The notes under the pieces are model-generated. The model did not search any database. It was not told where the DNA came from and saw only the letters and a program-made list of their open reading frames with translations. Shown piece by piece: positions 8,141-62,182 of a stretch of 64,000 bases of DNA. Origin of the DNA: a virus. The position numbers and the translations under genes were made by a program. The DNA is taken from the IMG/VR virus record IMGVR_UViG_3300037258_000145, positions 23,684 to 87,683 of that record; one strand, 5' to 3'. The stretch's first letter is position 1; each line of letters begins with the position of its first letter.

Positions 8141-8347
8141 GTGAAGTCCGACTCAAAACCTTCCGTGGACTGGAACGCTGGCTTTCTCTGGTTTCTCATC
8201 ACCGGTGTGCTCGGATTCTGGCTCCTGGTTGTCGCATACCACTCGCACAACTGGGAGAGGGCAAATATCCCCGACGAACTACTGTACGTAGCTCTCCCTA
8301 CGATCAGTCTTCTTGTGGGATGGCTCGTGGCAAAGTTCTCTCGATAA
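8141..8347 (+). CDS. Two-TM small membrane protein, leaderless
   Basis: Two hydrophobic helices; TGC-TAAGCT -10 box at 8128-8133, 7 nt before GTG. Confidence 0.6.
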   Translation: MKSDSKPSVDWNAGFLWFLITGVLGFWLLVVAYHSHNWERANIPDELLYVALPTISLLVGWLVAKFSR

Positions 8348-8371
8348 AAGCGCGCGGTCACCGCGCGCTTT
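8347..8371. repeat. Dispersed palindrome copy 1
   Basis: AAAG-CGCGCGGTCACCGCGCG-CTTT between convergent genes. Confidence 0.9.
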
Positions 8372-8901
8372 CAGGGGTCGACGCCAGGATTGTTCGGGTT
8401 GTAGTAGCTGCCAGGCAGGAAGTTGGCAGTCTCTTCGACGGTCATCACCATGTCGGCGGCGAAGAGGGCGAAACCCTGGCCTGAAGCGTTGGCCCTGATC
8501 CGGGTGTAGTCGACCGACCACTTCTCCCCGACATTCAAGAACTGGGTCTGGAACCCCGTCACCGGATCGGTCCACGGCACCACGGCGTCTGCTGGGTAGA
8601 CGAGGAACTGCGCCAGGACTTGGTCGATCACAAGCGGAAAAGCTGTATCGAGGGCGGGATCATCGAGATTCATTCCTTGCGTCAGTTGGATGTCGACCTG
8701 CCAGGTGAACTTGTAGAAGCCCTGAGGACGAGGAGCGGACTGACGGGCACCGGTCATGCGTCCGCCCCAGATGTAGGCCGCTGGCGCACTGGCACTGTTG
8801 GCCATGACAGGATCGCTGATGTATGCCTGAACCGGATCGGTCTGTGGCGTCCCGAGCCCATCGAGCTGCCCGAAGATCCAGCGCTGGAGGCTTGCTAACG
8901 T
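8371..8901 (-). CDS. Tail terminator/head-tail completion-like protein (start uncertain: ATG 8805 or near-cognate ACG 8901)
   Basis: Position after the connector-like gene; frame open upstream of 8805 (LASLQRWIFGQLDGLGTP) up to TGA 8908-8910. Confidence 0.5.
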   Translation of the reverse strand, partial: TLASLQRWIFGQLDGLGTPQTDPVQAYISDPVMANSASAPAAYIWGGRMTGARQSAPRPQGFYKFTWQVDIQLTQGMNLDDPALDTAFPLVIDQVLAQFLVYPADAVVPWTDPVTGFQTQFLNVGEKWSVDYTRIRANASGQGFALFAADMVMTVEETANFLPGSYYNPNNPGVDP

Positions 8902-8994
8902 AGCTGCTCACCTGCTCCCATCAGCACGCGGCCAACCCAAGCCCTGTTCTTTGCGCTTGAGATACTCTACGTCTGACCTGTGCGATCTCATCTA

Positions 8995-10074
8995 CTAATA
9001 CACACGCGAAAACGGCCTCACAGCCGCCGCCGCCATCTTCTGGGCCGTCATGATCGTCTCTTCGATCGTGACTACCCTGCCGTCGCCCGTGATGCTGAGC
9101 GTCGCTAGACCTTGCTGTAACGCCCATGCTTTGGCGTACAGCGCCGTACCCTGTCTTACCCCTCTCGGCATCGCGGTCACCAGTACCGGGGCCGTGTGAG
9201 CGAACTGAGTGGGGTTTGCGAGGGTCAGGGTGCCCGGCCCCACAGGGACGATGACCGAACTCCAATAGGGCGTGGACGCGTTGGAGGGAGCCTGGACGCC
9301 TGACGGAGAACCGGGGCCGTTGGCGATGGTGCACTGCCAGGTATTGGCTGAGGTGTCGTTCACCAGCGCGCCGGGCCAGTAGTTGCCTGTCGATGAGTAC
9401 GTAGCCGGTGTCGGGTAGCTCACCGAGGCGCACTGCACCACCTCGGCGTTGGGGCCGTCCAGGATGTCGAGGGCGGCGCCGAGCATCCCGCACACCTCGT
9501 CGACCTGGATCGTCGCCGCGCTCTTGGCGCAGTTGGCCGTCAATTGGCCATGGGGCCAGCCGTGGAGATAGTTGACCCACCACTCCAGCCCACCGCGTCC
9601 CAGCCCTCCCCCATAGCCCCAACTGAGCCCACCTGCTATCTGGATGGCGTTGTTACCGCCTCCGAACCCCGCCGGGGCAGACGAGCCGTACACGCCGAGC
9701 GGTCGTCTCTCAGGCCACAGAGCGCCCGCCTGGGCCACGGTCCATGTCTTGGGGTACGCCACCTGTGCCGCCGTGAAAGCACCGAAGGGAACCGAGACGA
9801 TGGGGTTGTACGAGCACAGGAGCCGTCCGTTGCCGTTGGACAGGATCGAAGCGCGGTGATCGGGCATGTACCAGTCCTCAGAGACGTACTGGCAGGGGAG
9901 GGACTGGTTGCATTCCCGGTTGACCTCGGAGGTGGCGAACTCGCAGACGACGAGCAGAGCGGCGACATTGACCGGATCAGACGGCTTGGTACTGCCTGCC
10001 TGGCCCATCGTCGACCAGCTCACACCTAAAGGCATCGCTACCAGGTCGGCTGGCTCAAGGAAGGGGGCGGACAT
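8995..10074 (-). CDS. Head-tail connector/adaptor-like protein
   Basis: 359 aa downstream of capsid genes; ends ...MPRGVRQGTALYA...AAAAVRPFSRVY, typical of connectors. Confidence 0.55.
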   Translation of the reverse strand: MSAPFLEPADLVAMPLGVSWSTMGQAGSTKPSDPVNVAALLVVCEFATSEVNRECNQSLPCQYVSEDWYMPDHRASILSNGNGRLLCSYNPIVSVPFGAFTAAQVAYPKTWTVAQAGALWPERRPLGVYGSSAPAGFGGGNNAIQIAGGLSWGYGGGLGRGGLEWWVNYLHGWPHGQLTANCAKSAATIQVDEVCGMLGAALDILDGPNAEVVQCASVSYPTPATYSSTGNYWPGALVNDTSANTWQCTIANGPGSPSGVQAPSNASTPYWSSVIVPVGPGTLTLANPTQFAHTAPVLVTAMPRGVRQGTALYAKAWALQQGLATLSITGDGRVVTIEETIMTAQKMAAAAVRPFSRVY

Positions 10075-14514: not shown

Positions 14515-17367
14515 TCAGTCGTCAGAGACCATGGCGATAGCGAACTGCTCGGGAGTCAGTTCTTCCATGGCCTGAGCGATCGCGGGTCCCGCGATCTGCG
14601 AATTGGGGGAATGGATGCCGCTTTTCAGCCGCTTGATCTTGGCGTGGACCTCGGCCAGCTTTTTGCTGTCCACAAGGTCGGGAGTGGGCCGGAATGCCGT
14701 ACCGGTCTGGCGGGCCTTGCGGGCTCGGGGATCGGGTGCCCGAAGGGCGGTCCTCACCTCGGCCTTGAAGGCTTCGAGCTCGGCCCTGGTTATCGTCACC
14801 GTGTCACCTTTCTGGCTCTTGTTCGCCTTTGCCTTGCGGGCCTTACCTTGGTCCGCACCCTTCTCGGGTGCCTTTGGGCCTTTGGCCTTGGCCGCGCCTG
14901 CGGTAGAGGCGGGAGTCAATCTGCCGTCATTGGTGCCTGCTGGTTTCGGTAGGGGGACGGGCTTGGCCGTCGCTTGGTACATGGCGTCTGGTTGGCCCAT
15001 GACGTCGTCGGGGGTGACATCGTTCGGATAGATGCCACCGTCTTTGTCGGCACTGTCGTGCATGGGGCAGATGCCGGGGAAGTTGCGGGCGATGTGGTCG
15101 TGCAGCATGGCCGCTACGTCGCCGTCGCCCTTGTCGCTGTTCTTGTAGAACACCCGCGCCGACGTCGGCGGGGCCAGCTCGGCGGCGGGCTTGTCCTTCT
15201 TGCCCTTCCGGGAGCCTTTCTTGCTCTTGGGCAGGCTGGCAGCCGAGACGCCGGGAGTGGGAGACGGACGAGCTTCGTTCGGGATCTGGCTAGTCCGGTT
15301 GAAGTCGGATGGCCCGAAGGTCGGGGCCATGCCCGGTGTGGGGATAGCGAACCCACCCGTCGGGGTGTCAGAGGTCGCACCGGACAGGAACGGGCGCTTG
15401 AACTGGTCAGGCGAGTTGAGCGTGAACCCCGTACCGGTCATGGTCGGGTACGCCGCTTCCATCGCCTTGTGAGCCGCCGTGCGCAGCCGTTCAAAGGTCG
15501 GGGTCGCCATCTGGCTGAGCTTGGTGGCCGCGGCCAACGAGTCGTAGGCGCGGGTGACGTCGCTCTCGCGTCCCTTGTCCTTGGCCATCTGGTAAGCGGT
15601 GGCGAAGTAAGAGGGGTCGATCGACTTGAGGGCTGACTCGGCGTCCACGGCGTAGACGGGGCACAGGGCATCGTGAGCGGCCAGGGCAGGCAGAGGAACG
15701 TGGCGGGACTTGTTGGCTCGCTTGGCTTTCTTCTTGTCCTTCTTGGCCTTGCGCTTCATACACATCTTGCACTTGCCACACTTGCCGCTGTCGCAGTTGG
15801 CGGGCATGGCGTCGTCAGGATCACCGTCGTCTCCACTCGGGGGCGGGGCGTCGTCATCGGTAGCATCGGCGCTGTCAGCCGGGGGGGCGTCCTTGGCTGC
15901 CTTCGGGGCAACCGGAGGAGCTTCCTTGTTGGCGATGTTGTCCTCGTCGGCATCCTGCGCGTCGTCCAGCACCTCTACGGCGTCTTGGACGTTGTCGAGG
16001 GCGTCGTCCACGATGTCATCCCCCGCTGTGGGCGGGTGATCCTCGGTATCGGCGTCCTGGGCGTCAGAGACATCGCCGGTGGCGTCCATCAGTTCATCGA
16101 TAGCGTCAGACACGTCGTCGTCGGTATCAGGTACTCCGTCATCATTGGAGTCATCCTGCTTGGCCGCTACGGGCTTGGTCTTCTTGGCCTTTTTGAAATC
16201 CATCGGGACCTGGCCGGCGCCTTCGCAGTCAGGGCACTTGCGGTTGCCCATCATGATCGTGCCTGAGCCCTTGCAGGTGGGACATGCCTTGTTGCCCTCG
16301 GTCGGGTCCTTACCGTCGAGACCGCTGGCCGCGGCTGCCTTGGTGGACTTGGCCGTGCATGCCGGGCACTTGCCGCAATCGCCAGACTCGCAATCCTTCA
16401 TCTGCTTCCCTTTCTTGACGCCCCAGCTGTCCGGCAGCTCGGCTGTAAAGCTCGGGCCCTTACGCTTGCACAGGGCTATGAGCTTGGATTTGAACTCTTC
16501 GAAGGTGGTAGAGCCCTTGTACCGGCCCCATGAACTGACGGCATCAGAGACATCGGCCGGAGTGACGACAGGGAACTTGCCATCTCCCTCGTCAGGCAGT
16601 ACGAAGTCGGCCGGGTCGAGCTTGTCCCGGTCCACTCCTCCACCGACATCGGGGTCCATGTCCCGCTTGAAAGCGGCATACCAGTGCGCCGCGGCCAGTG
16701 TCTTTTCGGCTCGGTAGACCATGGCCCGCTTGAGCGCCCTGGTGATCCCGTCGCCTGTCTCGTCTGTTACCGGCACCTCGTCAATACGCGCGGCACCGCG
16801 CGCTTCTGGTTCGCTGGACAGTCCGAACAGGTCGGGGGCTTGGCCCTTCGCCTTGGACTTGGCCATGACGAAGCGAGGCACCTTGGTCTTTTCCTTGGTC
16901 CCGGACACGCCCTCGATGTGAGCGTTCGGGTTCGCCCCGGCGTCAACCAGCGACACCTCACGCGCCCAGCCTCCGACCATTCGGCCGTTGGGGGCTTCGG
17001 GGTCACGGACGTATTCAGGGTCGTACCAGCCAACCGAAAAGTCCTTGTAGACGCCATTGAGCACGTGCTGGACGGCAGTCGGCTCATAAACATGCGCCCG
17101 GATACTCGACCCGTCTTCGGGATCGACTTCCAGGGCTATGCCGTTGCCCGCGGGCGGATAATATTCGCAGTGCTGACCGAACACCGCAGCGCCACCTTGG
17201 TACCAGTCAGATAAGGCCTTGGCGGCAAAGTCAGCATCGACTATCTCGCCGTCTGAGTCCAGGGAATCGTCGGTCACCTTGCCCCAGACGATCACCGAAC
17301 CGTCGGGCTGTTCCTTGCGCTTGGTGATCGGATGATAGGTACGACGGAGCGCGGGCCTAGTAGCCAG
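14515..17367 (-). CDS. Prohead protease-scaffold fusion with extra domains; probable CTG start
   Basis: IVWGKVTDDSLDSDGEIVD...GVYKDFSVG...EVSLVDAGANP (HK97-type protease), CxxCxGxG zinc motifs, acidic tract; TGA AGG CGG CAT CTG start context. Confidence 0.8.
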   Translation of the reverse strand: MATRPALRRTYHPITKRKEQPDGSVIVWGKVTDDSLDSDGEIVDADFAAKALSDWYQGGAAVFGQHCEYYPPAGNGIALEVDPEDGSSIRAHVYEPTAVQHVLNGVYKDFSVGWYDPEYVRDPEAPNGRMVGGWAREVSLVDAGANPNAHIEGVSGTKEKTKVPRFVMAKSKAKGQAPDLFGLSSEPEARGAARIDEVPVTDETGDGITRALKRAMVYRAEKTLAAAHWYAAFKRDMDPDVGGGVDRDKLDPADFVLPDEGDGKFPVVTPADVSDAVSSWGRYKGSTTFEEFKSKLIALCKRKGPSFTAELPDSWGVKKGKQMKDCESGDCGKCPACTAKSTKAAAASGLDGKDPTEGNKACPTCKGSGTIMMGNRKCPDCEGAGQVPMDFKKAKKTKPVAAKQDDSNDDGVPDTDDDVSDAIDELMDATGDVSDAQDADTEDHPPTAGDDIVDDALDNVQDAVEVLDDAQDADEDNIANKEAPPVAPKAAKDAPPADSADATDDDAPPPSGDDGDPDDAMPANCDSGKCGKCKMCMKRKAKKDKKKAKRANKSRHVPLPALAAHDALCPVYAVDAESALKSIDPSYFATAYQMAKDKGRESDVTRAYDSLAAATKLSQMATPTFERLRTAAHKAMEAAYPTMTGTGFTLNSPDQFKRPFLSGATSDTPTGGFAIPTPGMAPTFGPSDFNRTSQIPNEARPSPTPGVSAASLPKSKKGSRKGKKDKPAAELAPPTSARVFYKNSDKGDGDVAAMLHDHIARNFPGICPMHDSADKDGGIYPNDVTPDDVMGQPDAMYQATAKPVPLPKPAGTNDGRLTPASTAGAAKAKGPKAPEKGADQGKARKAKANKSQKGDTVTITRAELEAFKAEVRTALRAPDPRARKARQTGTAFRPTPDLVDSKKLAEVHAKIKRLKSGIHSPNSQIAGPAIAQAMEELTPEQFAIAMVSDD
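16782..16806. repeat. Dispersed palindrome copy 2 (1-nt deletion)
   Basis: CAATA-CGCGCGGCACCGCGCG-CTTC inside the protease gene. Confidence 0.75.
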
Positions 17368-17465: not shown

Positions 17466-17648
17466 TCAGGAGCGCTCTAGCCCTACCCACTTCACGGCTA
17501 GGCAACTCCAGCACAGCAACCAACTGGCCCGCTTACGACCGTCTACAGCCAGGCTCAGCTTGTGTAGGGAGTGGTCATGCTCTCCGCAGTCGCTACAGCG
17601 GCCGAGTCGCGCGCGTGCGACTGGTTTGCGCTTGTGGTGCTTGCTCAG
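17466..17648 (-). CDS. Small Zn-finger protein with CTGA-coupled start
   Basis: (L)SKHHKRK...CSDC...CWSC; CTG overlaps the upstream TGA. Confidence 0.4.
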   Translation of the reverse strand: MSKHHKRKPVARARLGRCSDCGEHDHSLHKLSLAVDGRKRASWLLCWSCLAVKWVGLERS

Positions 17649-24684: not shown

Positions 24685-25011
24685 TCAGCCATGGTCCGGC
24701 TCCAAATACGCGCGGTCACCGCGCGCTTTCAGTTCGTCGGCCACTAGATCGGCCAAGTGGTCGAGGGCGTCGGGTGGGATCATGGCGGTTGAGAACTCAA
24801 TATCGCCGACGATGACGAAGATTGGGGGCGGGTCAACACCTCGATAGAGGAAATTAGCCTCGATGGCATCCTGTAACTGGTGGCCTGCCTCCCAGCTCAG
24901 GCTTGGGCTCTTGACGACCAGCATCTCGCCCGGTTTCAACTCCAGCTTGGCTATCTCGACGCGGACCGCCTCAGCGATCACAGGGACTTGGACCAAGGGG
25001 ACTTCAGCCAT
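24685..25011 (-). CDS. Hypothetical protein flanked by 16-bp direct repeats
   Basis: 108-aa ORF; TCAGCCATGGTCCGGC at both ends. Confidence 0.55.
   Translation of the reverse strand: MAEVPLVQVPVIAEAVRVEIAKLELKPGEMLVVKSPSLSWEAGHQLQDAIEANFLYRGVDPPPIFVIVGDIEFSTAMIPPDALDHLADLVADELKARGDRAYLEPDHG
24704..24732. repeat. Dispersed palindrome copy 3
   Basis: AAATA-CGCGCGGTCACCGCGCG-CTTTCAG. Confidence 0.9.
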
Positions 25012-27862: not shown

Positions 27863-30800
27863 TTACTTGGTACCAGGTAATTCTTCCCGCACATCCTCAC
27901 GTGGCACGTCGTGATTTTTTGTGTTGTACTGCATCTGGCGCACCTTCTGTGGCCAGTCTGCGTCTCCGCTGCCCGGGGTCCCCACCCAGGCAGCGGAGGT
28001 GGTGTGCCCTGCCTTTTGGAGCGCTTCGGTGCGGTAGTACCCGTCAGCGATGACCATCTTCGGCCCCGCGCCCGCCACTAAGACAATGGGCTTGGGCTGC
28101 TTGCCGCCCTTGATCTCTTCCACCTTTTCCTCGACACGGGCGGGGTCGCGCCCGCCGGGGCGGTGGGCCATTTCGATGTCGTCGAGGGCGACGGCGGGCT
28201 TTAGCTGCCACTCGCAACCCTTCACCCAGTCCAGGTCGACCTTGTCGTAGTGCTTGGCCAGGTACTTGTAGACGTGGTCAGCGGCATCGTCGTCGTCGTC
28301 GGCCTTACCGTAGGCGCCGGGCTTCACCTGTCCTTCAGGCCAGGGAGCGGGCGCTTTGGTAGCGGTGTAGCCGGGAGGGAGGCGGCGGTTCAGGAGGGAT
28401 TCGAACGACTCCTCGTCGGACTTCAGCGCCGGCGCGGCCAGGGTGTGCATGATCTGAGGCAAGCTCGCCATCATTTCGGGACGTAGTGGGAGCTGAGCCA
28501 GGTGGTTGGGGTCGAACCACGCCACGGCCTCGAAGCTGTCGCCGTCGGGATTGTTCACCTCGCGCCATTCGCCCTGGTTGACATCCACGCTCGCCTCATG
28601 GGCTGTCTCGACCACGAAGCCCTGATAGATGCCGCTCGTCCAGGAGCCGAGCCACTTGGCGTCTGCCGGTAGGAAGGTCCCTACCTCTTCGCCCCATTCC
28701 CTCGCCGCGCCTTGCTCGGGTGATTCGCCCGCCTCAAGATGTCCCCCTGGCAATTCCCACATGCCGGCGCAGGGGTCAGAGGGGTCGTTGGCCCGCTGGA
28801 GCAGTAGGACTCGCCCGGAGTCGAAGGCACGGAGCAAAGCGCCAGCACAGGTGACCTGAGGCGTGGCTGTGGTCATCGCTGGGCCTTCGGAATCGGGGCC
28901 CTGTGCCTTGGCGGCGTTGGCTTCGTCGAGGCGTTGCTGGCCCCACTGCTTGGGGTGCTTGGCTGGCTTCTTGCCGCACTGGAGGCAGCGCACTCCTGAG
29001 CCGACGTAGGCATGGCGTTGGGTGCGCTCGGCGACGTTGTTCGGTGCTACCTGGCCCGGTTCGGGGCCTGAGAGGTCGAAGGGGACAAAGCCAGTGTCCA
29101 GGGGTGCTCCGACGCTGATGTCCTTGGGAGTCGCGCGCGTGCGACTTTTGCTCATCCATGCGGGATCGGTGCCCTGCGTGGTCTGGCGGGCGATCGAGGG
29201 GCTTTGGGTCTGAGCTAGGACCGAGTCGCCCTGCTCATAACTGAGCGAGCAGGCGCAGGCGGGCCCTCCGAGGCACAGGGTATCTTGGCCGTAGTCCCCG
29301 TCTCCAGGGAATCCGGGCAGATCAGCGGGGCTAAACGTCTGGCCGTCGAGAGCCAGGCAGTTCTCACAATTTTCGGCGTCACCGAGGGTCCAGCGGATCA
29401 CACTGTTGGTGCCATCGGCATCCGGCGCCGCGGCGATGTAGCCCTGCTCGTACGGCGCCGTGAGCCCATCGGCGTAAGATTGGACCCTGGTAGCGGTCGA
29501 CTGCGCCCCGCTCGGTGCGTTGACCGCGCCTGCGACAACTCCACCGACTACGTCGAGAGCTAGGTCCTTCAGGTACGGCATCATGCTCATGGCCCGGGTT
29601 TGAGCTAGGGCGGGGGCACTCTCGGGACTGGGTGGGCTGGCAGCGTCCCCCCAGTCACCAGCCCCGCTACCGGCACCAGCGGTATATGCGTCCTGGTATG
29701 CCTGAGCCAGGATGGGGATGGCGGCCGGCGCGAACTGGGCGGGCTTTAGCTTGTGATCGGTGAGCTTGTGCACCAGGGCGGTCAGACCGGCCATCAGGGA
29801 GGCTCTGGGCTTGGCCAGAGCGGTCTCCCGGTGGTCTAGCCGTCTCTGGGCCTTAGCGGCCTTCAGGGCGGCCGTGGCGGGGTCCTGCTCGCCTTTGGCG
29901 GCCTTCAGGGCGGCAGGGCGCAGTGCTCGGGGCTCGAAGCTCTCCAGCGACTTGCCGCGGGCCAGATAGCGGCGCAGGGCGCGCAGTTCGTTTGCCTTCT
30001 CTTTTTGGCTGGCCGATTCGTGCGGCTCGGCATCTCCCGCCGCCGTCAGGCCTTGGTCGGCGGTGCTCTTGTCGGGTTCAGGAGCATTGCCGTTGGCGGG
30101 CGGTTTGGGTAGAGCAGGAGGCTTGTTGCCGGGCTTAGGCGGCGCTGGCGGCTTGCTAGCGCCGCCCTCAGGTGGCAAGGGTCGGGAGTTGGCGTCGATC
30201 GGGGCCGGACCTGAGCCGGGCGGAGGGGGCGGAGTTTGGCCCATGGGGATAACGCCGGTCGGGAGGAATTGGAGCGGCACCATCGACCAAGGCTCGTTGT
30301 AGGTCTTCAGGTCCAACGCGATGCACGCTTCGTCGATCGAGGTGAGAGACGCCTTGACGAGTGCAACTTGGTCGGTGATGCGGTCCGACAAGGTCTCGCC
30401 CTGGTCCATGACTCCCCAGGACCACGCCATGTCCGTCTGGCCGAACTTGCCCCGGATCAGGGGATCGAACAGGCCCGTTTTCAGCTTCTTGGCCAGGGGG
30501 ATGGCACTGCGGCGCGTCGTCTGGTCGGCGGCTTGGGTGGCGGCGTTCTTGGAGGCCGCCGGGCTCATCATCGAAGAGAGCTTGGGGGTGATGCCGAGGT
30601 CGCTGATCGACAAGCCGAACGGCATGGCGATGAGTGAGGTAAACCACGTGTCGATGTCGTCGGAGAGGTCGGCCGGCTTTTGGGGACTGACTTTTGCTCC
30701 AGGCGGTGTGACAATGACTTGATGCATGTTGGCGAGGTCGCCACCGAGTTGGTTGATCGCCTGCATGAGCTGGCGGGCTTCCTCGGGCGTAGCGATCGAC

Positions 30801-31897: not shown

Positions 31898-31924
31898 CAA
31901 TACGCGCGGTCACCGCGCGCATTC
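31898..31924. repeat. Dispersed palindrome copy 4
   Basis: CAATA-CGCGCGGTCACCGCGCG-CATTC upstream of the portal gene. Confidence 0.9.
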
Positions 31925-32039
31925 GTCTCCGTCAGTACCGGCAATTGTGCGTTGCGTGGGCGAGGAGGACCGCATTGCCATCTTCGCCATCGTAGCCCGA
32001 CCTATCATGGCTCAGCAGTGACCAGCGCCGGGGAGGCAT

Positions 32040-41149: not shown

Positions 41150-41694
41150 GACCGGCCCTCATTTCTCACGAACACGTGCCCGATGAAGTGGCCCTCATCC
41201 ATCTGGAAGGTGGACAGGTACTTGAAGCTGTCCAGATCGTGGTATTCATGACCGGTGAGGGCTACTCGGACAAGCCAGTTCTGATGGACACCTAAGGGCG
41301 GGTTGGAGTTGACCTTGGCCCACAAGACAGGGAGCCCATGCTGGATTCGAACGGTCAGGGGTTCAGCGTGAATGGGCAAGCTCAAGGGGGTGTCCCCGAG
41401 AGCGAGCGGGTACTTGTAGACGACGCTCATCGGTCAGCCCACTTCACCTTGTCAGGGTGAGCGACCTGCCAAGCGAGGACGGCCTCCCGATGCGCTTCCA
41501 GTTCGCTGATCACGGCATCATCAACGACAGCCCGATCTTGGTACTCGCTCAAGTAAAAAGACAGGACGCTACAAGCCAGTCGGTCCTGCGCTCGAATGAC
41601 GATACAGGGCTCGTCCTCAGGAATGGGGCCGTGACCACCCACTCCGGGAGCCTTCACGACGACGTAGCGGGGTTTGAACATGATTCTCCTTTTC

Positions 41695-41722
41695 CATACG
41701 CGCGGTCACCGCGCGCTTTCAG
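41695..41722. repeat. Dispersed palindrome copy 5
   Basis: CATA-CGCGCGGTCACCGCGCG-CTTTCAG at a gene junction. Confidence 0.9.
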
Positions 41723-50399: not shown

Positions 50400-50783
50400 T
50401 CACGCAAACATCTCCGAGGGCTGCTCGTCGTCGGCTGAAAGCGCGCGGTCACCGCGCGTATTGGTCTTGGCCAGCGCTTCGCGGCTCAAGTCAAGGAAGT
50501 GCCGATGAGACAGGCGGTCCGGCACTGTCCCAAGCGCGCCCTTCAGCCCTCCGCGTCGTCGTACGGCTCCACAGCGGGCCATGACCTCTAGTACGGAGGG
50601 ATGGGTGGAGTGGATGGCCTGAAGCTCGGACAGGGCACCGCGGGCTTCTCCGTAGCTCCAGGGGGACAGGGCTGCGGCTAGGGACTCCAGCGCCTCTTCG
50701 TCGATGATCTCAGGGCTCCAGTAGGCCGCGTAGACGCTAGTCATGGCTCGCAGCTCTTGGGGGCTCATGGGTTCCGGTGTCAC
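50400..50783 (-). CDS. Helicase-loader/G39P-like protein (second copy)
   Basis: AAYW...SYGEARGAL...PSVLEV; follows the initiator module. Confidence 0.4.
   Translation of the reverse strand: MTPEPMSPQELRAMTSVYAAYWSPEIIDEEALESLAAALSPWSYGEARGALSELQAIHSTHPSVLEVMARCGAVRRRGGLKGALGTVPDRLSHRHFLDLSREALAKTNTRGDRALSADDEQPSEMFA
50435..50463. repeat. Dispersed palindrome copy 6 (flanks inverted)
   Basis: CTGAAAG-CGCGCGGTCACCGCGCG-TATTG. Confidence 0.9.
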
Positions 50784-50824: not shown

Positions 50825-51274
50825 TTACCCACGGTCGTCGTCCTCAGAACCATCCTCGGAGTCGCGCGCGTGCGACTCGTCCGAGCCGATAGCAAGCTGG
50901 GCGCGTTCCCATCGGGCTCGCAGGATGGCAGCGTGGCCCTTGCTTGCCCACGGCATGGCGCCGATCAACCGTTCCCGAGCTTGGCCCAGAAAGGACCGAC
51001 TCGCTTCGGGAGCTGCCGGTGGACCTGGCGGGAGGCTCGGCAGCGCTTCAAGCACTCGGTAGTGAGCGGAGCGGAGCGCCTGGGCGACTTCGGCGGGCGC
51101 GGGCCGGAATTGACGTTGCTGGTTGAACAGCATGTCAAACGCCATCTCAAACTCTTGGCGCGTGTACCGGGCGAGATGGGCCGTCAGGACCAAGGTCTCA
51201 TCCTGGGTCGGTGCTGGCGTCGGCCAGTAGCCAAGAAGCTGATGAAGGCATGAATAGATGCGGTCCTCATCCAC
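50825..51274 (-). CDS. Helicase-loader/G39P-like protein
   Basis: LLGYWP...YTRQEFEMAF...FRPAPAEV; directly after the initiator. Confidence 0.45.
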   Translation of the reverse strand: MDEDRIYSCLHQLLGYWPTPAPTQDETLVLTAHLARYTRQEFEMAFDMLFNQQRQFRPAPAEVAQALRSAHYRVLEALPSLPPGPPAAPEASRSFLGQARERLIGAMPWASKGHAAILRARWERAQLAIGSDESHARDSEDGSEDDDRG

Positions 51275-51992: not shown

Positions 51993-52462
51993 TGGTTCGG
52001 TCCCCTGTGCCTCTCTGGGAATTGCTCGCGGTGAGCCGTCATCCAGCGCCCTCCGCCTCGGCAAGAAAAGTGATGGCGTGCGTGCCCGACTTACCAGCCG
52101 TCCAGTGCTGGTGACCGTGCAGAGCCACGTACAGTTTGGCCGCCTCAGCCAGCTTCTCGGCAATGAGTGTGTCATCACCAGCCCATGCGATTTGTCGGGC
52201 ATCGGTGTGGTCGCCGCTGTGGTCCAACCAGAGGACGCACCGCACTGGCTCAAACGGACCAGCAGCCTGATACCTAGCCCGGCAACGGTGCATGGCCTGG
52301 GCCTCGGCGTTTTGCTCGGGATCGGGCGGAAGTTGCATGCGCTCTATAGGCATGACGCACCAGCGATCCCGAAAGAGCGCTTAGCATTGCCGCCAGAGGG
52401 GTACTGCTTGGGGTAAGATGCTTTCGCATCGATGAGCATGGGAGACGTGACCTCCTGTGTTA

Positions 52463-52506
52463 TGGGCGGGGTCCCCGGGTTCACGCCCGGGCCTCGTCTT
52501 TTTTTA
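52463..52506 (+). terminator. Intrinsic terminator-like hairpin with T tract
   Basis: CCCGGG-TTCACG-CCCGGG inside a longer GC stem, followed by a T run. Confidence 0.6.
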
Positions 52507-52513
52507 GGTAGGG

Positions 52514-55097: not shown

Positions 55098-55165
55098 GCT
55101 GGCTCCCTCGTGTTCGATTGTGAAAGCTAGCTTAGCATACCACGGCCCACCGACCGTCAAGTCCG

Positions 55166-56899
55166 TCAGTAGGCCTCGTCCAGCGCCTTCAGTTTCATCT
55201 CTGTGGCGATCAGGTTCGCAGCGTCGCGGACCATGACGGGACGGTGCGAGGGATTGACGAAATGGGGGACGTTGGTCAGGTCCAGTTCGAACTGCGCCCG
55301 GGTACTGGCAACGTAGGCGAGACGAAGCTCGGCGGGGACCAGATCGTCCTCGTTCTCCCGTGGGGGCATGAAGTCGGAGTGAACCTGTACCCGCGGCCAC
55401 TGACGGCCCTTGGACTTGTGCGTAGTACTGACCACGACGTCGGCTTGGTCCTCGGCGGGCTGGCGCTCAAGGGCGTCGAGGATAACCCCGGCCCCGAAGT
55501 CGTCGATCAGCTTGACCATGAGACGGAGATCGTCACCTTGCTCGTCGTTGCCGACGTAGAACTGGACCTCGGCCCAGTTGGCGAAACAAGCCAGCTCGGG
55601 GTATTGGGTGCGGCGTCCGGTTTGTAGCTCGATGGCGGCTTTGCAGAAAGCGACCACCTCGGTCCCACCTCCCACCAAGTGCGGCCGGCGGCGCATGCGC
55701 AGGGCGTCGAGTACCACGGTCACGGCGCCAGCGTTGGTACGGCACAGGATGGCCGAGGGCTCGGCTATCGGCCCGACCGTGGACGACACCGGACCGTAGC
55801 CCCGGAGACGGAGCGGAGCGTTCAGCCGGCCGAGGAGATTGTTGGCGATGGCAGCGATCGAGTCCCCGAACCGGAAGGACTGGGTGAGCTGGGCGACGTT
55901 GGCCCCCATCTCCTCGAAGTCGGCCAGGGCGTTGACCGCGCCGCGCCATTCGTAAAGCACCTGGTAGGTGTCTCCCACGACGACGATCTGGGTATCATGG
56001 ACCTTCTGGAACTCCACGATGGCCACCTGTACGGGATCGGCGTCCTGGCCTTCGTCGAGCAATATGAAGTCAGCCTCTATGGTCGGACCGGATAGCTGCC
56101 AGAGCTTGAGGTAGATGTCGTGGCTGAACCGCAAGCGACCGGTGACCGTGATCAAGTCCTCCCACGCTTTGCGAGCGAAGGGGAACAGGTAAGCAGCTAG
56201 GGCGTCGTTGTTGACGTAGGTCTTGTTACCGGCGGCGTCTGGCATGTCCAGCCCATCGACAGGGGCGAAGTGGCGGACGGTGACCTCCCGTTCGGCGGTG
56301 GCACAAAAGGCGCGTACGGCGCCCATGACCTTGCCGGCGAGGAACCCCGCGGCCAAGGTACGACCTTCACGCTTACCGCCAGTGTTGGGCAGCTCTACCG
56401 AGAAGGACCACGGGTCGATCCCGAGAATGGAAGCGGTCTCGTCGGCCTTGATGCGGGGGCCGTTCAGGCGGGAGCGGTACTGATGACCGAGAGCCCGGTA
56501 CGCGAGGCTGTGCATCGTCGAGGCATTGACATTGCCCGGGACCTTGGTTGCTACGTCATCGACGATCGACTTGTTGTAGGCGACGTACTGGCCGTGCTTG
56601 CCGTGTTCCTTGGCGTACTGAGCGATCAGGAGCAGCGTGGCCGTCTTGCCCGTCCCGGCCCCGGCTTGGATCACGAGGTCCTCTCCGGTAGCGAAGAGAC
56701 GAACGCACTCAGCCTGCTCGGGGGTCGGGATGATGTCGATTGTGGCTCGGGCAGGCTGGACAGCGGTCGGGCCCGTGGTGGAGCACTCACCATCGTGAGC
56801 GACCTTCCACTTGCCGTCGATCTTGAGAGCGATACCGGCCGCGACGGGGACGCGTACGCCACAGCGGTGACAGTTACCGGGGTACTTGTTGGTGGTCAT
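55166..56899 (-). CDS. UvrD/Rep-like SF1 helicase, leaderless
   Basis: AGAGTGKT, LLDEGQD, VVGDTYQ, LTQSFRF, STTHKSKGRQW, YVASTRA. Confidence 0.9.
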   Translation of the reverse strand: MTTNKYPGNCHRCGVRVPVAAGIALKIDGKWKVAHDGECSTTGPTAVQPARATIDIIPTPEQAECVRLFATGEDLVIQAGAGTGKTATLLLIAQYAKEHGKHGQYVAYNKSIVDDVATKVPGNVNASTMHSLAYRALGHQYRSRLNGPRIKADETASILGIDPWSFSVELPNTGGKREGRTLAAGFLAGKVMGAVRAFCATAEREVTVRHFAPVDGLDMPDAAGNKTYVNNDALAAYLFPFARKAWEDLITVTGRLRFSHDIYLKLWQLSGPTIEADFILLDEGQDADPVQVAIVEFQKVHDTQIVVVGDTYQVLYEWRGAVNALADFEEMGANVAQLTQSFRFGDSIAAIANNLLGRLNAPLRLRGYGPVSSTVGPIAEPSAILCRTNAGAVTVVLDALRMRRRPHLVGGGTEVVAFCKAAIELQTGRRTQYPELACFANWAEVQFYVGNDEQGDDLRLMVKLIDDFGAGVILDALERQPAEDQADVVVSTTHKSKGRQWPRVQVHSDFMPPRENEDDLVPAELRLAYVASTRAQFELDLTNVPHFVNPSHRPVMVRDAANLIATEMKLKALDEAY

Positions 56900-56935
56900 G
56901 AAACCTAGCTTAGCAGACCGACCTGAAGGGGTCAA
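56897..56935 (-). promoter_or_regulatory. SigA-type leaderless promoter
   Basis: TTGACC-17 nt-TAAGCT-7 nt-ATG. Confidence 0.75.
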
Positions 56936-56960
56936 TACGCGCGGTCACCACGCGCTTTCA
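56933..56960. repeat. Dispersed palindrome copy 7 (1 mismatch)
   Basis: CAATA-CGCGCGGTCACCACGCG-CTTTCA abutting the -35 of the helicase promoter. Confidence 0.85.
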
Positions 56961-57558
56961 CGGTCGGCTCAGGTACTCCATCAGTCGGTCCTGCGCCTCA
57001 GGCGACATGGCTACATTCGGGCATCCCAGAGTATGGCGACTGGCCTTGGGGTCGGTCTGCTCTAAACCGCACTTCATGCAGCGGGGCGCTCTCGGTAGCG
57101 GCGGTCCAAGAGACGACTTGTCGATCTCGGTGGCGAAGTGCTCGCCCCAGCGCTGGATCGGCGCGCGCCACTGAGTCTCAGGCCCGTGTGGTCCTAGAGA
57201 TGACCACCCGCATGAGCAGTAAGCGACCGACTTTTCGATGCCGTCTCGGATGTCCAGGGTCAGACCGTCGAAGAGGTGCCGGGTCACAACGGCTCGGCCC
57301 GCAAGCGTGCCGTCATCGACAGCCCCGCAGCCTCCGCAGGGACCCGTCGTGAAGTCGTGAAAACACCCGAGACAGCGACCAACGGGGACGGTCATCAGTC
57401 GACCTGCTCAAGCCAAGCAGGTTCGCCGCGACGCTCGGCCAAGACGTCGCCGTGGCATTCGGTCATGTGCTCATGCTGGGCCAGCTCGTCTGAGCCTTCC
57501 GGGCCTCCGCAGAACAGGCACTCATCGTCGGGGGGAGCTTCGTAGGTGGTCATGAAAG

Positions 57559-57984
57559 CTAGCTTAGCAGATGTCGGCTGGGGGTCAAGCGCTGCTGAAC
57601 AGCCTTCAGTGCCATACACGTCGGTTCGTCGCCCGCGGCTAGCAGCTTCTCGACCTGACGCACAGCTGAGATAGCTGTGGTGTGGTCCCGTTGGAACGCG
57701 TTGCCCACTCGGGACCAGGTGTAGCCGGGAAGGTGACGGACGAGGTACATGGCCAGACGCCGGGCGGGTAGAAGGTAGGCCAGGGTGCGAGGACCGATCA
57801 CCTCGGCCACACTGATGCCGAAGTACTCCGCCACCGCGGCGGCGATGGCCTCGACCGGACCGTGGGAGGCTACCCGGGCGTCGGTCTCGGTGAGGGCCCG
57901 CTCAAGGTCGGACAGGGCTTCGTCGAGCCGGACCTGACAGGCCCGGACGTTAGCGGTCGCCCGCCATACCGCCTCAGATGGCAT
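57559..57984 (-). CDS. DnaA C-terminal-like HTH protein
   Basis: VAEYFGIS...PARRLAMYL...VGNAFQRDHTTAISAVRQV. Confidence 0.8.
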   Translation of the reverse strand: MPSEAVWRATANVRACQVRLDEALSDLERALTETDARVASHGPVEAIAAAVAEYFGISVAEVIGPRTLAYLLPARRLAMYLVRHLPGYTWSRVGNAFQRDHTTAISAVRQVEKLLAAGDEPTCMALKAVQQRLTPSRHLLS

Positions 57985-58237
57985 GGGACCGAAGACGCGC
58001 GGCGTCACGCGGATTGTCCCGCTCTCGGGTGTTCAGGCCGCCCCAGATGCCCATGGGCTCGGCTCGGTCTAAGGCGTCCGCTAGGCACTGTCGACGTACT
58101 GGACAACTGGCACAGACGGCTTTGGCCTTGGCGCCGCGGTCACCGGGCGGAGGAAAGAACAGGTTCGGGTCGATGTCGCGGCAGGAAGCTCGGTCGCGCC
58201 ATGTGCCCGTAGCGACGAGGCGTAGCGAGGTGGTCAT
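57974..58237 (-). CDS. whiB: WhiB-family transcriptional regulator, leaderless
   Basis: WRDRASC...FFP...AKAVCASCPVRRQCL...GIWGGL. Confidence 0.92.
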   Translation of the reverse strand: MTTSLRLVATGTWRDRASCRDIDPNLFFPPPGDRGAKAKAVCASCPVRRQCLADALDRAEPMGIWGGLNTRERDNPRDAARLRSHAI

Positions 58238-58242
58238 GAAAG

Positions 58243-59397
58243 CTAGCTTAGCGTATCGGTCACGTCAGGTCTAGGGCGGCCGTAGTCCCTGACTTGGCGG
58301 AGCAGACCGATGACGAAGTCCCAGTCGCCTTGCTCAAGGTCGGTCAGGTCGGCCGCTACCTCCAGACGCACGGTGCCACCTGAAGCGAGCGTGATCGTGC
58401 GCGCCCATTTGGGTGGGTCGGGTAGGTCGACGTTGCGGAGAGGTAAGTCCATCTCGGGGATGAACCGGCGGGGGGCTGGCACACTGGCGATGGCAGGCGT
58501 CCCACTACTGAAGGCGGTTACGGGCTTCTCGGCGGCAGCTTGCACGATTGACTCCCTCGATACTCTCGTCTGAGGCGGTATGGCCCTGTCAGGGTGCCTG
58601 GTGCGCAGATGACGGACCAGGTTCTTGGTCGTGATCGACTCCAAGCAGACAGGACAGGGCGTGGTCGGAGAGGTGGCCACGGGCTCCCTCCTCCTGTCGG
58701 GATGATGCCAGCGGACATGATTGCCAACGCCACCCTTGACGGGCTCGACGCAGCCGTACGGACACGCCTCCTCGGTGTCCCTGGTCTGACCGCACCACCT
58801 CATGTGACCAGCGCGGCCGGCGCTGTCTTTGAAGTCGGACTTGCCACACTTCGGGCAGGGCTTGGGGTAACCCGATGTCCTATCCGGACTACTCCCAATT
58901 GAAGAATCTGACAACGATGTCTGTTTCATTTGCGCATCTGTGTCTACGGCCGGCGCTGTCTTCTCAGCCTCGGCGCGCGTCGGTGCCAGTTTGAGCGTGG
59001 ACTGGTGAGGATGATGGTTCTTGCCGCTGCTGTGGACAGGGACCGGTTTGGGGTCTTCGATCTTGCCCGACTCAGGAAGGTGTGGGACCGGGAAGCTGGA
59101 GACCAGCGCTTCCCGGGATGAAGCGCCCTGCTGGTTCAGGCTCTCGGGAGACTGCACAGGGTCGTAAGCCCGGACCCTTGGAGCGGACGCTCCATCTCCC
59201 CAGATTTCATCGACGTCGGCACCGAACGAACTGGCCCACTGAATAGCCATGTCCTCGGTGATCGCCTTCCAACTTCTCATGGCAACTCGGACCTCTCGGC
59301 ACCCGAGGCGGGCGGCGGCGTTCACACCCGAACCGGTCGACTCCAACCAGTCAGCAAATTTGGAGACCGAGAACATCTGGACAGCGATCTCAGACAC
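58243..59397 (-). CDS. Multi-C2H2 zinc-finger protein
   Basis: CPKC..HMRWC, CPYGC..HVRWHH, CPVC..HLRTRH. Confidence 0.65.
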   Translation of the reverse strand: MSEIAVQMFSVSKFADWLESTGSGVNAAARLGCREVRVAMRSWKAITEDMAIQWASSFGADVDEIWGDGASAPRVRAYDPVQSPESLNQQGASSREALVSSFPVPHLPESGKIEDPKPVPVHSSGKNHHPHQSTLKLAPTRAEAEKTAPAVDTDAQMKQTSLSDSSIGSSPDRTSGYPKPCPKCGKSDFKDSAGRAGHMRWCGQTRDTEEACPYGCVEPVKGGVGNHVRWHHPDRRREPVATSPTTPCPVCLESITTKNLVRHLRTRHPDRAIPPQTRVSRESIVQAAAEKPVTAFSSGTPAIASVPAPRRFIPEMDLPLRNVDLPDPPKWARTITLASGGTVRLEVAADLTDLEQGDWDFVIGLLRQVRDYGRPRPDVTDTLS

Positions 59398-60265
59398 CGT
59401 AGACCGCCTCCTTAGCGAAGACTTGGTACCGCTCGAGCTTCGGGTACATCCGCTCAACTAGTTGGTCCAGATGGGAATGCAACGGGCCGGCCGGACCGTA
59501 ACCGGCCCCAGGCTCCAACATCGTCCCTGGCTTGAAGGCCGGCGTGAACTCGCCGCGGGTGGCGTACAGGATGAACTCGTGCTCGCCCTTCACCCACAGC
59601 CCGTTGTAGTCGCTGTTCTCCTCGGCGCTCGGCCAGATCAGACAACTCCGGTAGGTCATTTGCCAGGCTCCGAGCACTGACAGGCCGTCAGGGAGCTTGT
59701 CGTGGGGCACCCACAGGAACAGGGCGCACAGCGGAGCGGCAGGGACCGTCACGTCGCAGATGTCGTCGGTGTCCATGTGTTCCCACGGAGCGTCAGCGAT
59801 CAGGACGGGCCAGGTCTTGCGTTCTTCAGGGGGGATGGAGGCCTGATGTTGACGGGTGACCTCCTGTGCCCGCTTGGAGCGTTCGGCGTGGACTTCGTTA
59901 CGAAGGTCGCCTGAGGTCAGGTTCTCGGCCTTGGCCCGCTTCAGGAGGGCTCTGGCTGTGTCTGGTGGGAGGGCCGCTACCTCGCGGTGATGAGCAAACG
60001 GCACTCCAGGTTCGCGCATGCCTTGAGGGAACCGTTTAGCCACCCAAGCCGAGGCCCGGATGGTCGACAGGGCGTAGCCCGTGGGAAGTGCTTGGGCGGC
60101 TGACTCGCCATACGCTCGCTCCCCATACAAAAACCACTCACCGAGTACCCACTGGATGCCCTTTTCCATCTCCTGGAGTTGGGCGCCGACCTCTTCCCAT
60201 TCGGCATAAGTCAGCCCTGGAGGGAGCATGAGCCCTTCGGGCGTCCACCACTCTTTGAGGCTCAT
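59390..60265 (-). CDS. MT-A70-like adenine methyltransferase (degenerate DAPW motif)
   Basis: VLIADAPW...ALFLWV...VLGAWQMTY...EHEFILYATRG. Confidence 0.65.
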   Translation of the reverse strand: MSLKEWWTPEGLMLPPGLTYAEWEEVGAQLQEMEKGIQWVLGEWFLYGERAYGESAAQALPTGYALSTIRASAWVAKRFPQGMREPGVPFAHHREVAALPPDTARALLKRAKAENLTSGDLRNEVHAERSKRAQEVTRQHQASIPPEERKTWPVLIADAPWEHMDTDDICDVTVPAAPLCALFLWVPHDKLPDGLSVLGAWQMTYRSCLIWPSAEENSDYNGLWVKGEHEFILYATRGEFTPAFKPGTMLEPGAGYGPAGPLHSHLDQLVERMYPKLERYQVFAKEAVYGV

Positions 60266-61289
60266 GACGTCTTCTCCGGATAGATGCCCTCTTTAGCCAG
60301 CGTCTCGCTCAGGCGCTTCAGACGGTCCCGGTTGGTCTGGAGCCGTTGGCGCCAGTTGTCGGCGGCTTCCTCAAAGGCCTGGGTCGTGACTTCGTTCTCC
60401 CTGATCTCGTCGGCCAGTTCCTTCAGCGCTAGCTTGGCGCGGGCTACGGCAGCGGGATCCCAGTTGAGGCTCATCCCGCCACCTCGTCCTGTACCGCCTC
60501 CACAGCGTCACGAAGTAGCATCATGGCTCCAGCGAAGGGGGCTCGGTACTCGGGGTCGGCCTCGCTAAGACGGCGCAGCATGGCCACGCTGGCGTCTCGG
60601 AGCCCCTTGAACGCTTCTCCCCCGTAGAGGTCCATGGTCACCTCGGCGCCGTCCAGGTAGCGCTGAAGAACCACGGTGTTCAGGCCCATGGGCGTCATGT
60701 TGATCTGAAGCCCAGTTACGTCACAGACCTTCTGGCCGTCCAGGTAGATCACGGCCTTGGCGCCCTGGATGGAGTCGCTGACGAGTTTGAGTTTCACGGC
60801 GCCATCTCCAAGGCTGAGCGGGCCATCGAATACTTGCACCACCGGCATACGCCACAGGGCTCGCCAGGTGATCGATAAGACATGATCCGCCGCTTGACTT
60901 CGTAGCACTGACGCTCATGCTCAGGTAAAAGTTCGTCGGCCATCTCAACTGCGGTCAACAACAGGCGAAGATCGATATCCCACCAGGGGGTTTCAGAGGG
61001 TGTGGTGTGCAGACGTTCGGCCACGTGCTCGCGGCGAGCCTTGAGTGCATCCAGGCGTGAACGTACGCTCTCGGCGCTCACGACGGCTCCGGCCATGACT
61101 GACGAGGCGATAGATGACGACCGAGGTGCCCAGTCTCGCGCCGACACGTCTCATAGATCGTGATGGCCTCGTCCTCGCGAACATCATTCGACTCTTCCCC
61201 AACAAAGCGAGCGTAGACCGGCAGGGCATCACCGTAGGCGTAATGGGAGAATACGAATGTCGGGTGCTGTGCCCCGCACAGGTCGACGC

Positions 61290-62123
61290 TCACGACGGCT
61301 CCACCTTGGGTGTGACCGACTCAGCCCTCACACCAAGCCCAGGGACCGGGACCCGTCCCAACAGAGGGAGCGTGGTCATTACCACCTGCACCGCCATGAT
61401 CTCGCCGTCACCGTCATGGATCGGCTGATGTCGCCAGCCGGTGAACTCAACGGCTGGCGGCTCGGCCGGACAAGCAGCCCCGACAGAACTGACCCAATGC
61501 GCCAACGTAGCCGAGAACGCGCCCGCCTCCGCCTCATGGCTCTCGGGGATCAAAACGATCGGCTCACCGCAGTTGCCGCAGATGGCTCCGCTCTCGATGA
61601 ACACCTCAGGCTTGATGCGCGACACTTGAGGCTCCGGGTCGATCTTGCACCACCGGTCCTCCAGGTCGTGGTAGGTCGCCAACCAGGCCAGCAGTTCGGC
61701 CTTAGCGGTGATCTCGACCGCTCCGCCCTGGTTGTGCAGCGTGGTCCCCAGTGTCCCGTTAGGCAGCTTGACGGACTTCTCGCCTGTCTCCTCGCGGCGA
61801 CGGAGGGCGTAGTCCGAGAGCAGGAAGTTCCAGCGCGCTTCATCGGCAATCAGTGGGGCGTCTACCTCATGGCTCCATCGATGGATATTGGCCAGACGCT
61901 CGTCTGCAAGTTGGTGGACTTCGGCTCTCTTGGCTTTGACCTTGGCCAGTTTGCGGAGCGCCCAGTCGGCGGCGCCGTCGTTCTGGACGCTCCAAGGGCC
62001 TTGCGGCCCGCCGTCCGGCTCCCGGGGGTACTGGTCAACCTCAGGACTGTGGTAGTCGTCGGGCTGCTCAAGGTGGTCTAGGTACTCATCAAGCTCAGGA
62101 TAGTTTTCAGGTGCGGTGGTCAT
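61290..62123 (-). CDS. Mu Gam-like host-nuclease inhibitor, leaderless
   Basis: ADWALRKLAK coiled coil...KSVKLPNGTLG. Confidence 0.7.
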   Translation of the reverse strand: MTTAPENYPELDEYLDHLEQPDDYHSPEVDQYPREPDGGPQGPWSVQNDGAADWALRKLAKVKAKRAEVHQLADERLANIHRWSHEVDAPLIADEARWNFLLSDYALRRREETGEKSVKLPNGTLGTTLHNQGGAVEITAKAELLAWLATYHDLEDRWCKIDPEPQVSRIKPEVFIESGAICGNCGEPIVLIPESHEAEAGAFSATLAHWVSSVGAACPAEPPAVEFTGWRHQPIHDGDGEIMAVQVVMTTLPLLGRVPVPGLGVRAESVTPKVEPS

Positions 62124-62159
62124 GAAAGGCATGTTAGCGCATCGACAGACCGATGGCAA
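62121..62159 (-). promoter_or_regulatory. SigA-type leaderless promoter
   Basis: TTGCCA-17 nt-TAACAT-7 nt-ATG. Confidence 0.7.
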
Positions 62160-62182
62160 TACGCGCGGTGACCGCGCGCTTT
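62157..62182. repeat. Dispersed palindrome copy 8
   Basis: CAATA-CGCGCGGTGACCGCGCG-CTTT between divergent transcription units. Confidence 0.9.

Follow-up and report, generated by a model that had tools for sequence, protein, structure and literature searches.

The 64,000-nucleotide window analyzed here (bases 23684-87683 of the 87,683-bp IMG/VR record IMGVR_UViG_3300037258_000145) belongs to a phage genome that carries a dispersed palindromic element, which we call palA. Ten copies are present in the whole record, eight in the window and two outside it, and the array is real, selected, and lineage specific. Our data support palA as a selected cis-acting site that is neither a product of chance nor a host repeat. 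In the reading that we favor, which we consider plausible though short of probable, the copies are docking sites on duplex DNA for a dimeric protein, by which one long direction of transcription would be punctuated. Positions are window coordinates unless marked "genome," which refers to the whole 87,683-bp record; the coordinates of all features are collected in Table 1.

On the coding strand, palA reads TGAAAG-CGCGCGGTSACCGCGCG-TATTG, a 28-base unit around a 17-base palindrome. A first, sequence-only reading of the window had placed eight cores at 8351, 16787, 24709, 31903, 41699, 50442, 56938, and 62162 and had suggested a scan of the whole genome. All eight were recovered, and the scan added two further copies, which brings the total to 10. 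In the window, seven of the eight copies match CGCGCGGTSACCGCGCG with at most two mismatches (six of them exactly and the copy at 56938 with one mismatch), compared to 0.10 expected and with none of 100 shuffles reaching seven. Genome-wide, nine cores match with at most one mismatch, compared to none for the reversed control. When all 28 positions are scored, the nine ungapped copies reach 25 to 28 matches (three copies with 28, three with 27, two with 26, and one with 25). No other site in the genome exceeds 18 (the score of the next best), and the best scores of 20 shuffles are 18 to 20; no weak extra copies were found by this score in the two widest gaps of the array. The half-site CGCGCGGT lies outside palA in none of its nine occurrences and the half-site ACCGCGCG in one of 10. 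The copies are near-identical over 28 bp, with no similarity past the unit. CGCGCG occurs 40 times in the genome (35.6 expected), and 29 of the 40 occurrences fall within palA or palB, a further conserved repeat (minus-strand sequence, AGTCGCACGCGCGCGACT) that forms an imperfect hairpin and is present in five copies, all in one orientation. As a side observation, CGCG as such is below its Markov expectation (453 versus 606).

The dyad is perfect in 8 of the 10 palA copies. The 17-bp palindrome described earlier is found at most copies, but at 16787 it is reduced to 16 bp, with the T of GGTSACC missing. Similarly, the asymmetric flanks described as conserved are so in general, but AATA is replaced by AAAG at 8351 and by CATA at 41699, and CTTTCA is replaced by CATTCG at 31903, CTTCTG at 16787, and CTTTGG at 62162. 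TGAAAG and TATTG are each kept in 7 of 10 copies. No compensatory stem changes are present among the copies. The central base is C or G, as had been noted, and is independent of the orientation of the flanks, which is expected of a dyad center that is not contacted.

The array is polar and biased toward gene junctions. Only the copy at 50442 is inverted, in agreement with the first description, and 9 of the 10 copies are oriented with transcription (two-sided P = 0.021). Open reading frames (ORFs) were called by a crude codon-usage caller, and 109 of the 119 called ORFs are on the minus strand; 7 of the 10 palA copies lie in the 15% of the genome without a called ORF (P = 1.5e-4). The TGA provided by the flank at 8371, 41719, and 56958 is indeed the stop codon of the upstream minus-strand ORF, and the same is true at genome 18091, so that the motif supplies the stop in four copies (genome 18071, 32034, 65382, and 80621). 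In two further copies a stop codon is found 12 to 24 nt upstream of palA, and at the copies without the TGA (genome 55586 and 85845) no minus-strand ORF ends. The distance from palA to the next gene start is usually 9 to 45 nt. The sites are found at module borders: before the helicase gene, the portal gene, a capsid-like gene, the tail tube block, and the lysis block.

The record ends share a 127-bp repeat, which we take to indicate a circular or terminally redundant map. The gaps between the window copies are as first described (about 8.4, 7.9, 7.2, 9.8, 8.7, 6.5, and 5.2 kb), and on the 87,556-bp circle the 10 gaps range from 5.2 to 14.0 kb, with a mean density of ~1 palA per 8.8 kb and a coefficient of variation (CV) of 0.297, compared to a random mean of 0.876. 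The even spacing, for which a permutation test against random placement had been suggested, is significant and not random: P is 2.5e-4 under uniform placement, 7e-5 under random choice among the 109 gene junctions, 2.9e-3 without the degenerate copy, and 1.2e-4 for the eight window copies on a linear map. The widest of the gaps left by the seven intergenic copies are those occupied by the three in-gene copies, and if the intergenic copies are kept in place and three positions are drawn at random, the reduction in CV is smaller than with the observed sites (P = 4.3e-4).

The in-frame readings ARGDRA, TRGDRA, and ARGAAR given earlier for the copies inside genes are correct. The degenerate copy lies in a hypervariable linker of a 926-amino-acid (aa) ORF, where it is read as PEARGAARID; this linker has 24 aa, and those of the four closest homologs have 22 to 25 aa. 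Within the 108-aa ORF, KARGDRA, encoded by palA, aligns without gaps with residues of the ERRAEEE/ERRQERR type in the homologs. For the two testable in-gene copies, the alignments thus indicate that the motif overwrote existing codons and left protein length unchanged, which argues that a constraint on the nucleic acid overrode the protein sequence. A mobile insertion was rejected for these two copies, since neither is a net insertion relative to the homologs.

Elsewhere, among the matches listed, the exact core is found as a singleton in 11 IMG/VR contigs and in at least 120 stretches from bacteria or metagenome-assembled genomes, and the AATA/CTTTCA flanks are present in none of the 131 outside core occurrences. 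An abundant host repeat, which the sequence-only reading had named among the findings that would refute its proposal, is therefore rejected among the bacterial matches listed, where each of the at least 120 stretches has one copy and no flanks. Cultured phages gave no megablast match to the genome, and the best helicase identity among them was 37%; a single-protein scan of IMG/VR gave no match either. A set of relatives was assembled by helicase alignment from 80 IMG/VR and 80 metagenome loci, all with at most 52% identity, and comprised, with five whole relative records and a few further stretches, 189 loci and 2.8 Mb, in which palA was not found beyond chance. The five ~85-kb relatives have zero to six hits at three or fewer mismatches, compared to one to two for the reversed control, and none of the hits is dyad perfect. 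Closer relatives are known as proteins at 60 to 67% identity, and a scan with one such protein (P0123) gave no match. The relatives have dispersed repeat families of their own, which look more like promoters than like equivalents of palA. In one distant ~85-kb relative (G002), the unit TGGACA-N5-TACACCSGGTGTA is present in 16 copies; it is a palindrome of 13 bp and apparently spans the promoter spacer and the -10 box. In another (G001, ~85 kb), CTAGCGCGCTAG is present in 13 copies, each next to a TAKAGT -10-like box.

The genome derives from a soil metagenome, and identical pieces are present at low depth in a second soil study. No sequence variants at palA sites were found in the contigs of the two soil runs. 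In public contigs of the source run (k = 31), breaks or apparent joints are seen at palA/palB (50461-50526 and 62945); we do not read them as rearrangements, as they are expected of a 28-bp repeat in a k = 31 assembly.

In our model, a sequence-specific and probably phage-encoded protein would read palA as duplex DNA, most likely as a dimer across the 8-1-8 dyad. Its sites would be placed preferentially in short gaps at operon and module boundaries and, where there is no gap, would be written into coding sequence. The bound protein may punctuate the single long leftward transcription as a roadblock, an insulator, or a domain anchor. The genome has nine leaderless promoters of the type TTGACC-N17-TGCTAAGCT-N7-ATGACCACC, and every product starts with MTT. 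Unlike palA and palB, these promoters cluster in the early half of the genome (CV of 1.43). The -35 boxes noticed next to the cores at 56938 and 62162 are genuine members of this family. At these two sites, the protein would sit 2 bp upstream of an early leaderless -35 box and could also control initiation. The other eight palA copies lie away from the promoter family. The initial proposal of a genome-wide protein-binding site is thus supported in part: palA is a selected, even, polar, and junction-biased site, but it is not a general promoter operator, with 2 of 9 promoters preceded by palA.

What favors a site on DNA is, first, the all-or-none nature of the family together with its perfect dyad, since an RNA stem would not need sequence identity. 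The in-gene copies point in the same direction because ribosomes would melt a translated RNA hairpin. Furthermore, only the inverted copy of the three in 40001-60000 has five T in eight bases, the rule that we used for terminators, and it does so on the plus strand only; terminator-like sites in this interval number 8, compared to 10.4 in shuffles. Taken together, the even spacing, the in-gene copies, and the poor U-tract favor a duplex-DNA site, as do the free choice of C or G at the center, the bias toward DNA without called ORFs, and the precedent of the Cluster O mycobacteriophages (see below).

Several points weigh against a symmetric protein on duplex DNA. The Pfam scan covered 120 ORFs, and the statements on absent families rest on the 25 listed of the 32 families matched; within this scope, no cognate protein was identified in the phage, and the recognized DNA-binding domains are WhiB and a DnaA_C-type helix-turn-helix (HTH) only. 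The flanks are conserved, asymmetric, and in 9 of 10 copies aligned with transcription, a polarity that a symmetric dimer does not require. Both variant copies keep the hairpin on the sense strand, by a G.U pair at genome 80621 and by a 6-bp stem with a tetraloop at genome 40470 (-9.9 kcal/mol, compared to -11.9 kcal/mol for a standard copy). The 1-nt central deletion in the latter would shift the half-sites of a rigid dimer, and yet this copy is at a position that fits the even spacing. The companion palB is an asymmetric hairpin of constant orientation, and palA makes up nearly all perfect intergenic hairpins with a stem of at least 7 bp. The copy at genome 32034, the only one with T-runs on both sides, may lie between convergent ORFs, as would be expected of a bidirectional terminator.

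As to the identity of the protein, the ParB-like candidate proposed before does not hold up well. It has GNHEYKA in place of GERRxRA, the cytidine triphosphate (CTP) motif of ParB, and aligns to ParB structures over residues 20 to 100 only, i.e., the N-terminal domain. Its Pfam ParB_N score of 19.1 bits is below the cutoff of 26.3, and an HTH was not detected in it. The 149-aa DnaA_C-HTH protein, a weak HTH_23 protein, several small Cys-rich ORFs ending at palA (among them those of 116 aa and 109 aa), and a 180-aa ORF are candidates.

The main rival reading, possible if on the doubtful side, is that palA works as RNA. It would then be a G+C-only hairpin of 7 to 8 bp with a triloop, placed right after the stop codon in leftward transcripts, and would act as a leaky intrinsic terminator, as an attenuator, or by blocking 3' exonucleases, setting the ends and amounts of mRNA segments; the identity of the copies would stem from recent spread or gene conversion. 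The calculated stability of the standard hairpin (eight pairs with the flanking G.U) fits this idea, as do the A-rich 5' and U-rich 3' flanks, the four copies in which the TGA is the upstream stop, the two with a stop 12 to 24 nt upstream, and the sense-strand pairing kept in both variant copies. Past the stem of the symmetric-flank copy (genome 32034) follows CUUUUAU, almost no other strong intergenic hairpins are present in the genome, and palB is asymmetric as well. In addition, three moron-like units (from genome 65756, 81240, and 48915) consist of a promoter, one or two small ORFs, and palA, a layout that resembles pR-cro-tR1 of lambda, and a promoter directly follows two palA copies. Hairpin-only 3' ends without a U-tract are reportedly used in Streptomyces. 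However, the tails have only 2 to 5 U in the first 8 nt, mostly 3, and one of the three copies in 40001-60000 qualifies as a terminator. A hairpin needs identity of neither stem nor flank, and there are no compensatory variants. Three copies are within ORFs, two of them written into conserved coding sequence, and the even spacing has no obvious rationale at the RNA level. If the copies at genome 65382 or 5364 were strong terminators, promoterless downstream genes, whose ATG follows after 9 to 17 nt, would be silenced. No match to an Rfam family was found in the genome, nor were tRNAs.

Improbable in our view is a signal in single-stranded DNA, in which the palindrome would form a hairpin that is read together with its asymmetric flank by a strand-specific enzyme of replication or packaging, for example, in priming of a displaced strand during rolling-circle replication or by a nickase that leaves single-strand interruptions. 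Site-specific interruptions of this kind are known from phage T5. Polarity and asymmetric flanks would suit enzymes that read a hairpin plus flank, even spacing would suit priming of the displaced strand, the tolerated variants preserve the hairpin, and HNH-type matches are present in the genome. The lambda-O-like replication initiator gene contains iterons at 51639-51721 (three copies of ATTTGTCGCATTGG, two of them within a 21-nt repeat) and is likely to be the replication origin, and the sole inverted palA is the copy nearest to this putative origin (1,230 bp). Against such a signal speak the lack of an HUH nuclease, primase, or nickase among the families listed, the density of one site per 8.8 kb, which is sparse for lagging-strand priming, and the variable loop center, which does not fit loop-specific recognition. 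Separately, and noticed post hoc, the map position diametrically opposite this origin is 457 bp away from the copy at 8346-8373, the only one with symmetric flanks.

Very improbable is a selfish or neutral miniature repeat that spread without a function for the phage, similar to repetitive extragenic palindromic (REP) elements, which likewise sit just past stop codons. The near-identical 28-bp units with nothing in common beyond them, their place at junctions directly after stop codons, and their absence from relatives at ~50% helicase identity, and therefore their youth, would agree with recent spread. On the other hand, the two testable in-gene copies are not net insertions, the families listed include no type of transposase, the spacing is too even for random insertion, and no listed bacterial or viral record has more than one copy. 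Finally, palA as a Sigma-70/SigA-type promoter was rejected because TGAAAG-N17-TATTGN lacks the final -10 T (TANNNT) in all 10 copies and a real promoter is present at two copies only, downstream of the site, and an N4-like hairpin promoter is unsupported, with no RNA polymerase found in the family searches.

The phage itself has a virion module of the siphovirus type by family searches, with a tape measure, a tail tube, a portal-Nudix fusion, and a terminase large subunit. Further family matches are DNA methylases, a superfamily 1 (SF1) helicase, a Mu Gam-like protein, WhiB, a DnaA_C-type HTH protein, and the lambda-O-like replication initiator; ORFs of 1091 aa and 698 aa have no Pfam or PHROG match. 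The WhiB gene suggests an actinobacterial host. Because no integrase, ParA, or Cro/CI-type repressor is among the families listed, the phage looks virulent.

Table 1. Positions of palA, palB, leaderless promoters, and selected genes (window coordinates unless marked genome)
Feature	Position	Strand	Remarks
palA	8346..8373 (genome 32034)	minus	Exact core; symmetric flanks AAAG...CTTT; 11-bp stem; TGA is the stop of a 144-aa ORF; ~450-nt gap before capsid/decoration-like gene
Degenerate palA	16782..16808 (genome 40470)	minus	16-bp core, 1 nt lost at center
palA	24704..24731 (genome 48392)	minus	Exact core; 13 codons before stop of 108-aa ORF; reads KARGDRAY
palA	31898..31925 (genome 55586)	minus	Exact core; 5' flank CGAATG; in gap directly upstream of portal-Nudix ORF, on the side away from two plus-strand ORFs
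palA	41694..41721 (genome 65382)	minus	Exact core; TGA is the stop of a 116-aa ORF with a leaderless promoter; AAGGAG-N5-ATG of next ORF follows palA
palA	50436..50463 (genome 74125)	plus	Sole inverted copy; 28/28 positions; 14 codons before stop of 122-aa minus-strand ORF without homologs
palA	56933..56960 (genome 80621)	minus	One substitution, giving G.U pair on sense strand; flank TGA terminates a 109-aa ORF; core 2 nt upstream of -35 box TTGACC of helicase promoter
palA	62157..62184 (genome 85845)	minus	Exact core; 5' flank CCAAAG; divergent gap between Gam-like operon and ParB_N-like gene; core ends 2 nt before -35 box TTGCCA
palA	genome 5364		Outside window
palA	genome 18071		Outside window; TGA at genome 18091 is the stop of the upstream ORF
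palB	17605..17622	minus	Gene junction, 819 bp from a palA copy
palB	29129..29146	minus	Inside portal ORF
palB	50860..50877	minus	500-nt gap, 419 bp from inverted palA; adjoins replication initiator gene
palB	genome 3913-3930 and genome 18048-18065		Outside window
Leaderless promoters	62127, 58241, 57557, 56903, 45090, 42073, 33987, 25232, and genome 1185	minus (window sites)	First base of TTTCATGACCACC-like word
Leaderless promoter abutting palA	56897..56935	minus	TTGACC-N17-TAAGCT-N7-ATG; helicase gene
Leaderless promoter abutting palA	62121..62159	minus	TTGCCA-N17-TAACAT-N7-ATG; Mu Gam-like gene
ParB_N-like gene	62311-62883	plus	One of very few plus-strand genes; diverges from early operon
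WhiB-family gene	57977-58237	minus	Pfam E = 2.7e-26; leaderless promoter
Portal-Nudix fusion	27866-31858	minus	1,331-aa ORF; PHROG portal E = 1e-30, Nudix E = 4e-17
Lambda-O-like replication initiator	51267-51992	minus	phrog_270, E = 6e-26

Among published systems, palA comes closest to a 17-bp dyad repeat of the Cluster O mycobacteriophages (Cresawn et al. 2015, PMC4351075). Corndog and its relatives, which are not temperate, have this invariant repeat in 34 copies, with about one-third inside genes, and a dimeric DNA binder is predicted for it in that paper. The likeness to palA is considerable: both are found in an actinobacteriophage (a host assignment that rests on WhiB in our case) with a long flexible tail, and both are 17-bp units with invariant inverted arms and a variable center that are dispersed genome-wide. 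An integrase is lacking in both cases (here, among the families listed), proteins with a ParB-like domain are present but judged unlikely partners, and the in-gene share is about one-third compared to 3 of 10. The Cluster O unit as described there is, however, of the 7-3-7 type (TGTTCGGNNNCCGAACA), and its 34 copies are denser at one end and have no meaningful orientation, whereas palA is of the 8-1-8 type, has another sequence, and is present in 10 even copies with polar stop-codon flanks and with palB nearby.

In stoperators, the immunity repressor of a temperate phage binds to an asymmetric 13-mer. The analogy to those of L5, which the sequence-only reading had drawn, fails on this point: the core of palA has perfect dyad symmetry, and no integrase, partition genes, or classical repressor are among the families listed. 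What stoperators share with palA is that many copies lie in short intergenic gaps along the direction of transcription, some at promoters and most not. The Cluster A stoperators (L5 gp71) are likewise mentioned as asymmetric sites that belong to temperate phages (PMC4351075). KorB of plasmid RK2 is presented as a CTP-dependent clamp of the ParB family with an HTH and a ParA-type partner (McLean et al. 2025, PMC11790492). Its OB sites, in that account, resemble palA in being palindromes dispersed over a replicon of ~60 to 90 kb, some a few bp upstream of promoters and others far away, and the system has a second, shorter site, OA, which works with OB and may parallel palB near palA (P = 0.025). 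In contrast to KorB as described there, the ParB_N-like protein of the palA phage has no GERRxRA, an HTH was not detected in it, and ParA is missing among the families listed.

The Streptomyces phage phiC31, a temperate actinophage of high G+C content, is said to have a 17-bp conserved inverted repeat (CIR) at many intergenic sites that is bound by its repressor. Bacterial terminators and REP elements or bacterial interspersed mosaic elements (BIME) resemble palA as G+C-rich, polar hairpins right after stop codons. REP elements have conserved asymmetric flanks and can attenuate transcription or stabilize mRNA. Terminators have a U-tract and no common stem sequence, and REP elements are present in hundreds of host copies along with a RAYT transposase. 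palA mostly lacks the U-tract (one of three copies qualifies). Its bacterial matches, among those listed, are flankless singletons, and no transposase is among the phage families listed.

Returning to the docking of a protein on duplex DNA, palB may be part of the same system. Two of its five copies are within ORFs, and one copy follows a palA after 5 nt. Its spacing is even (P = 0.008), and its mean distance from palA, 1,097 bp, is shorter than that of random points (P = 0.025). It is imaginable, though unlikely, that palA and palB form a two-site system that splits the genome of a virulent phage into about ten domains of similar size. The protein would load or be anchored at palA sites ~8.8 kb apart, with palB serving to hold or release it, and the sites may serve as barriers to supercoiling or read-through on an 87-kb genome that is transcribed almost one way.

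Dispersed dyad repeats of actinobacteriophages have been in print since 2015, with no function assigned (PMC4351075). The palA array, as judged from its sequence, appears to be new relative to the Cluster O repeats in copy count, spacing, polarity, and stop-codon flanks. Its features narrow the options: the copies are few, an even spacing is maintained by writing the site into genes, the stop-codon flanks are polar, a second repeat, palB, is co-located, and the phage is apparently virulent. If the two-site arrangement is true, it would be a phage counterpart of KorB-OB/KorA-OA without a canonical ParB, and it could account for the dyad repeats of Cluster O and other phages.

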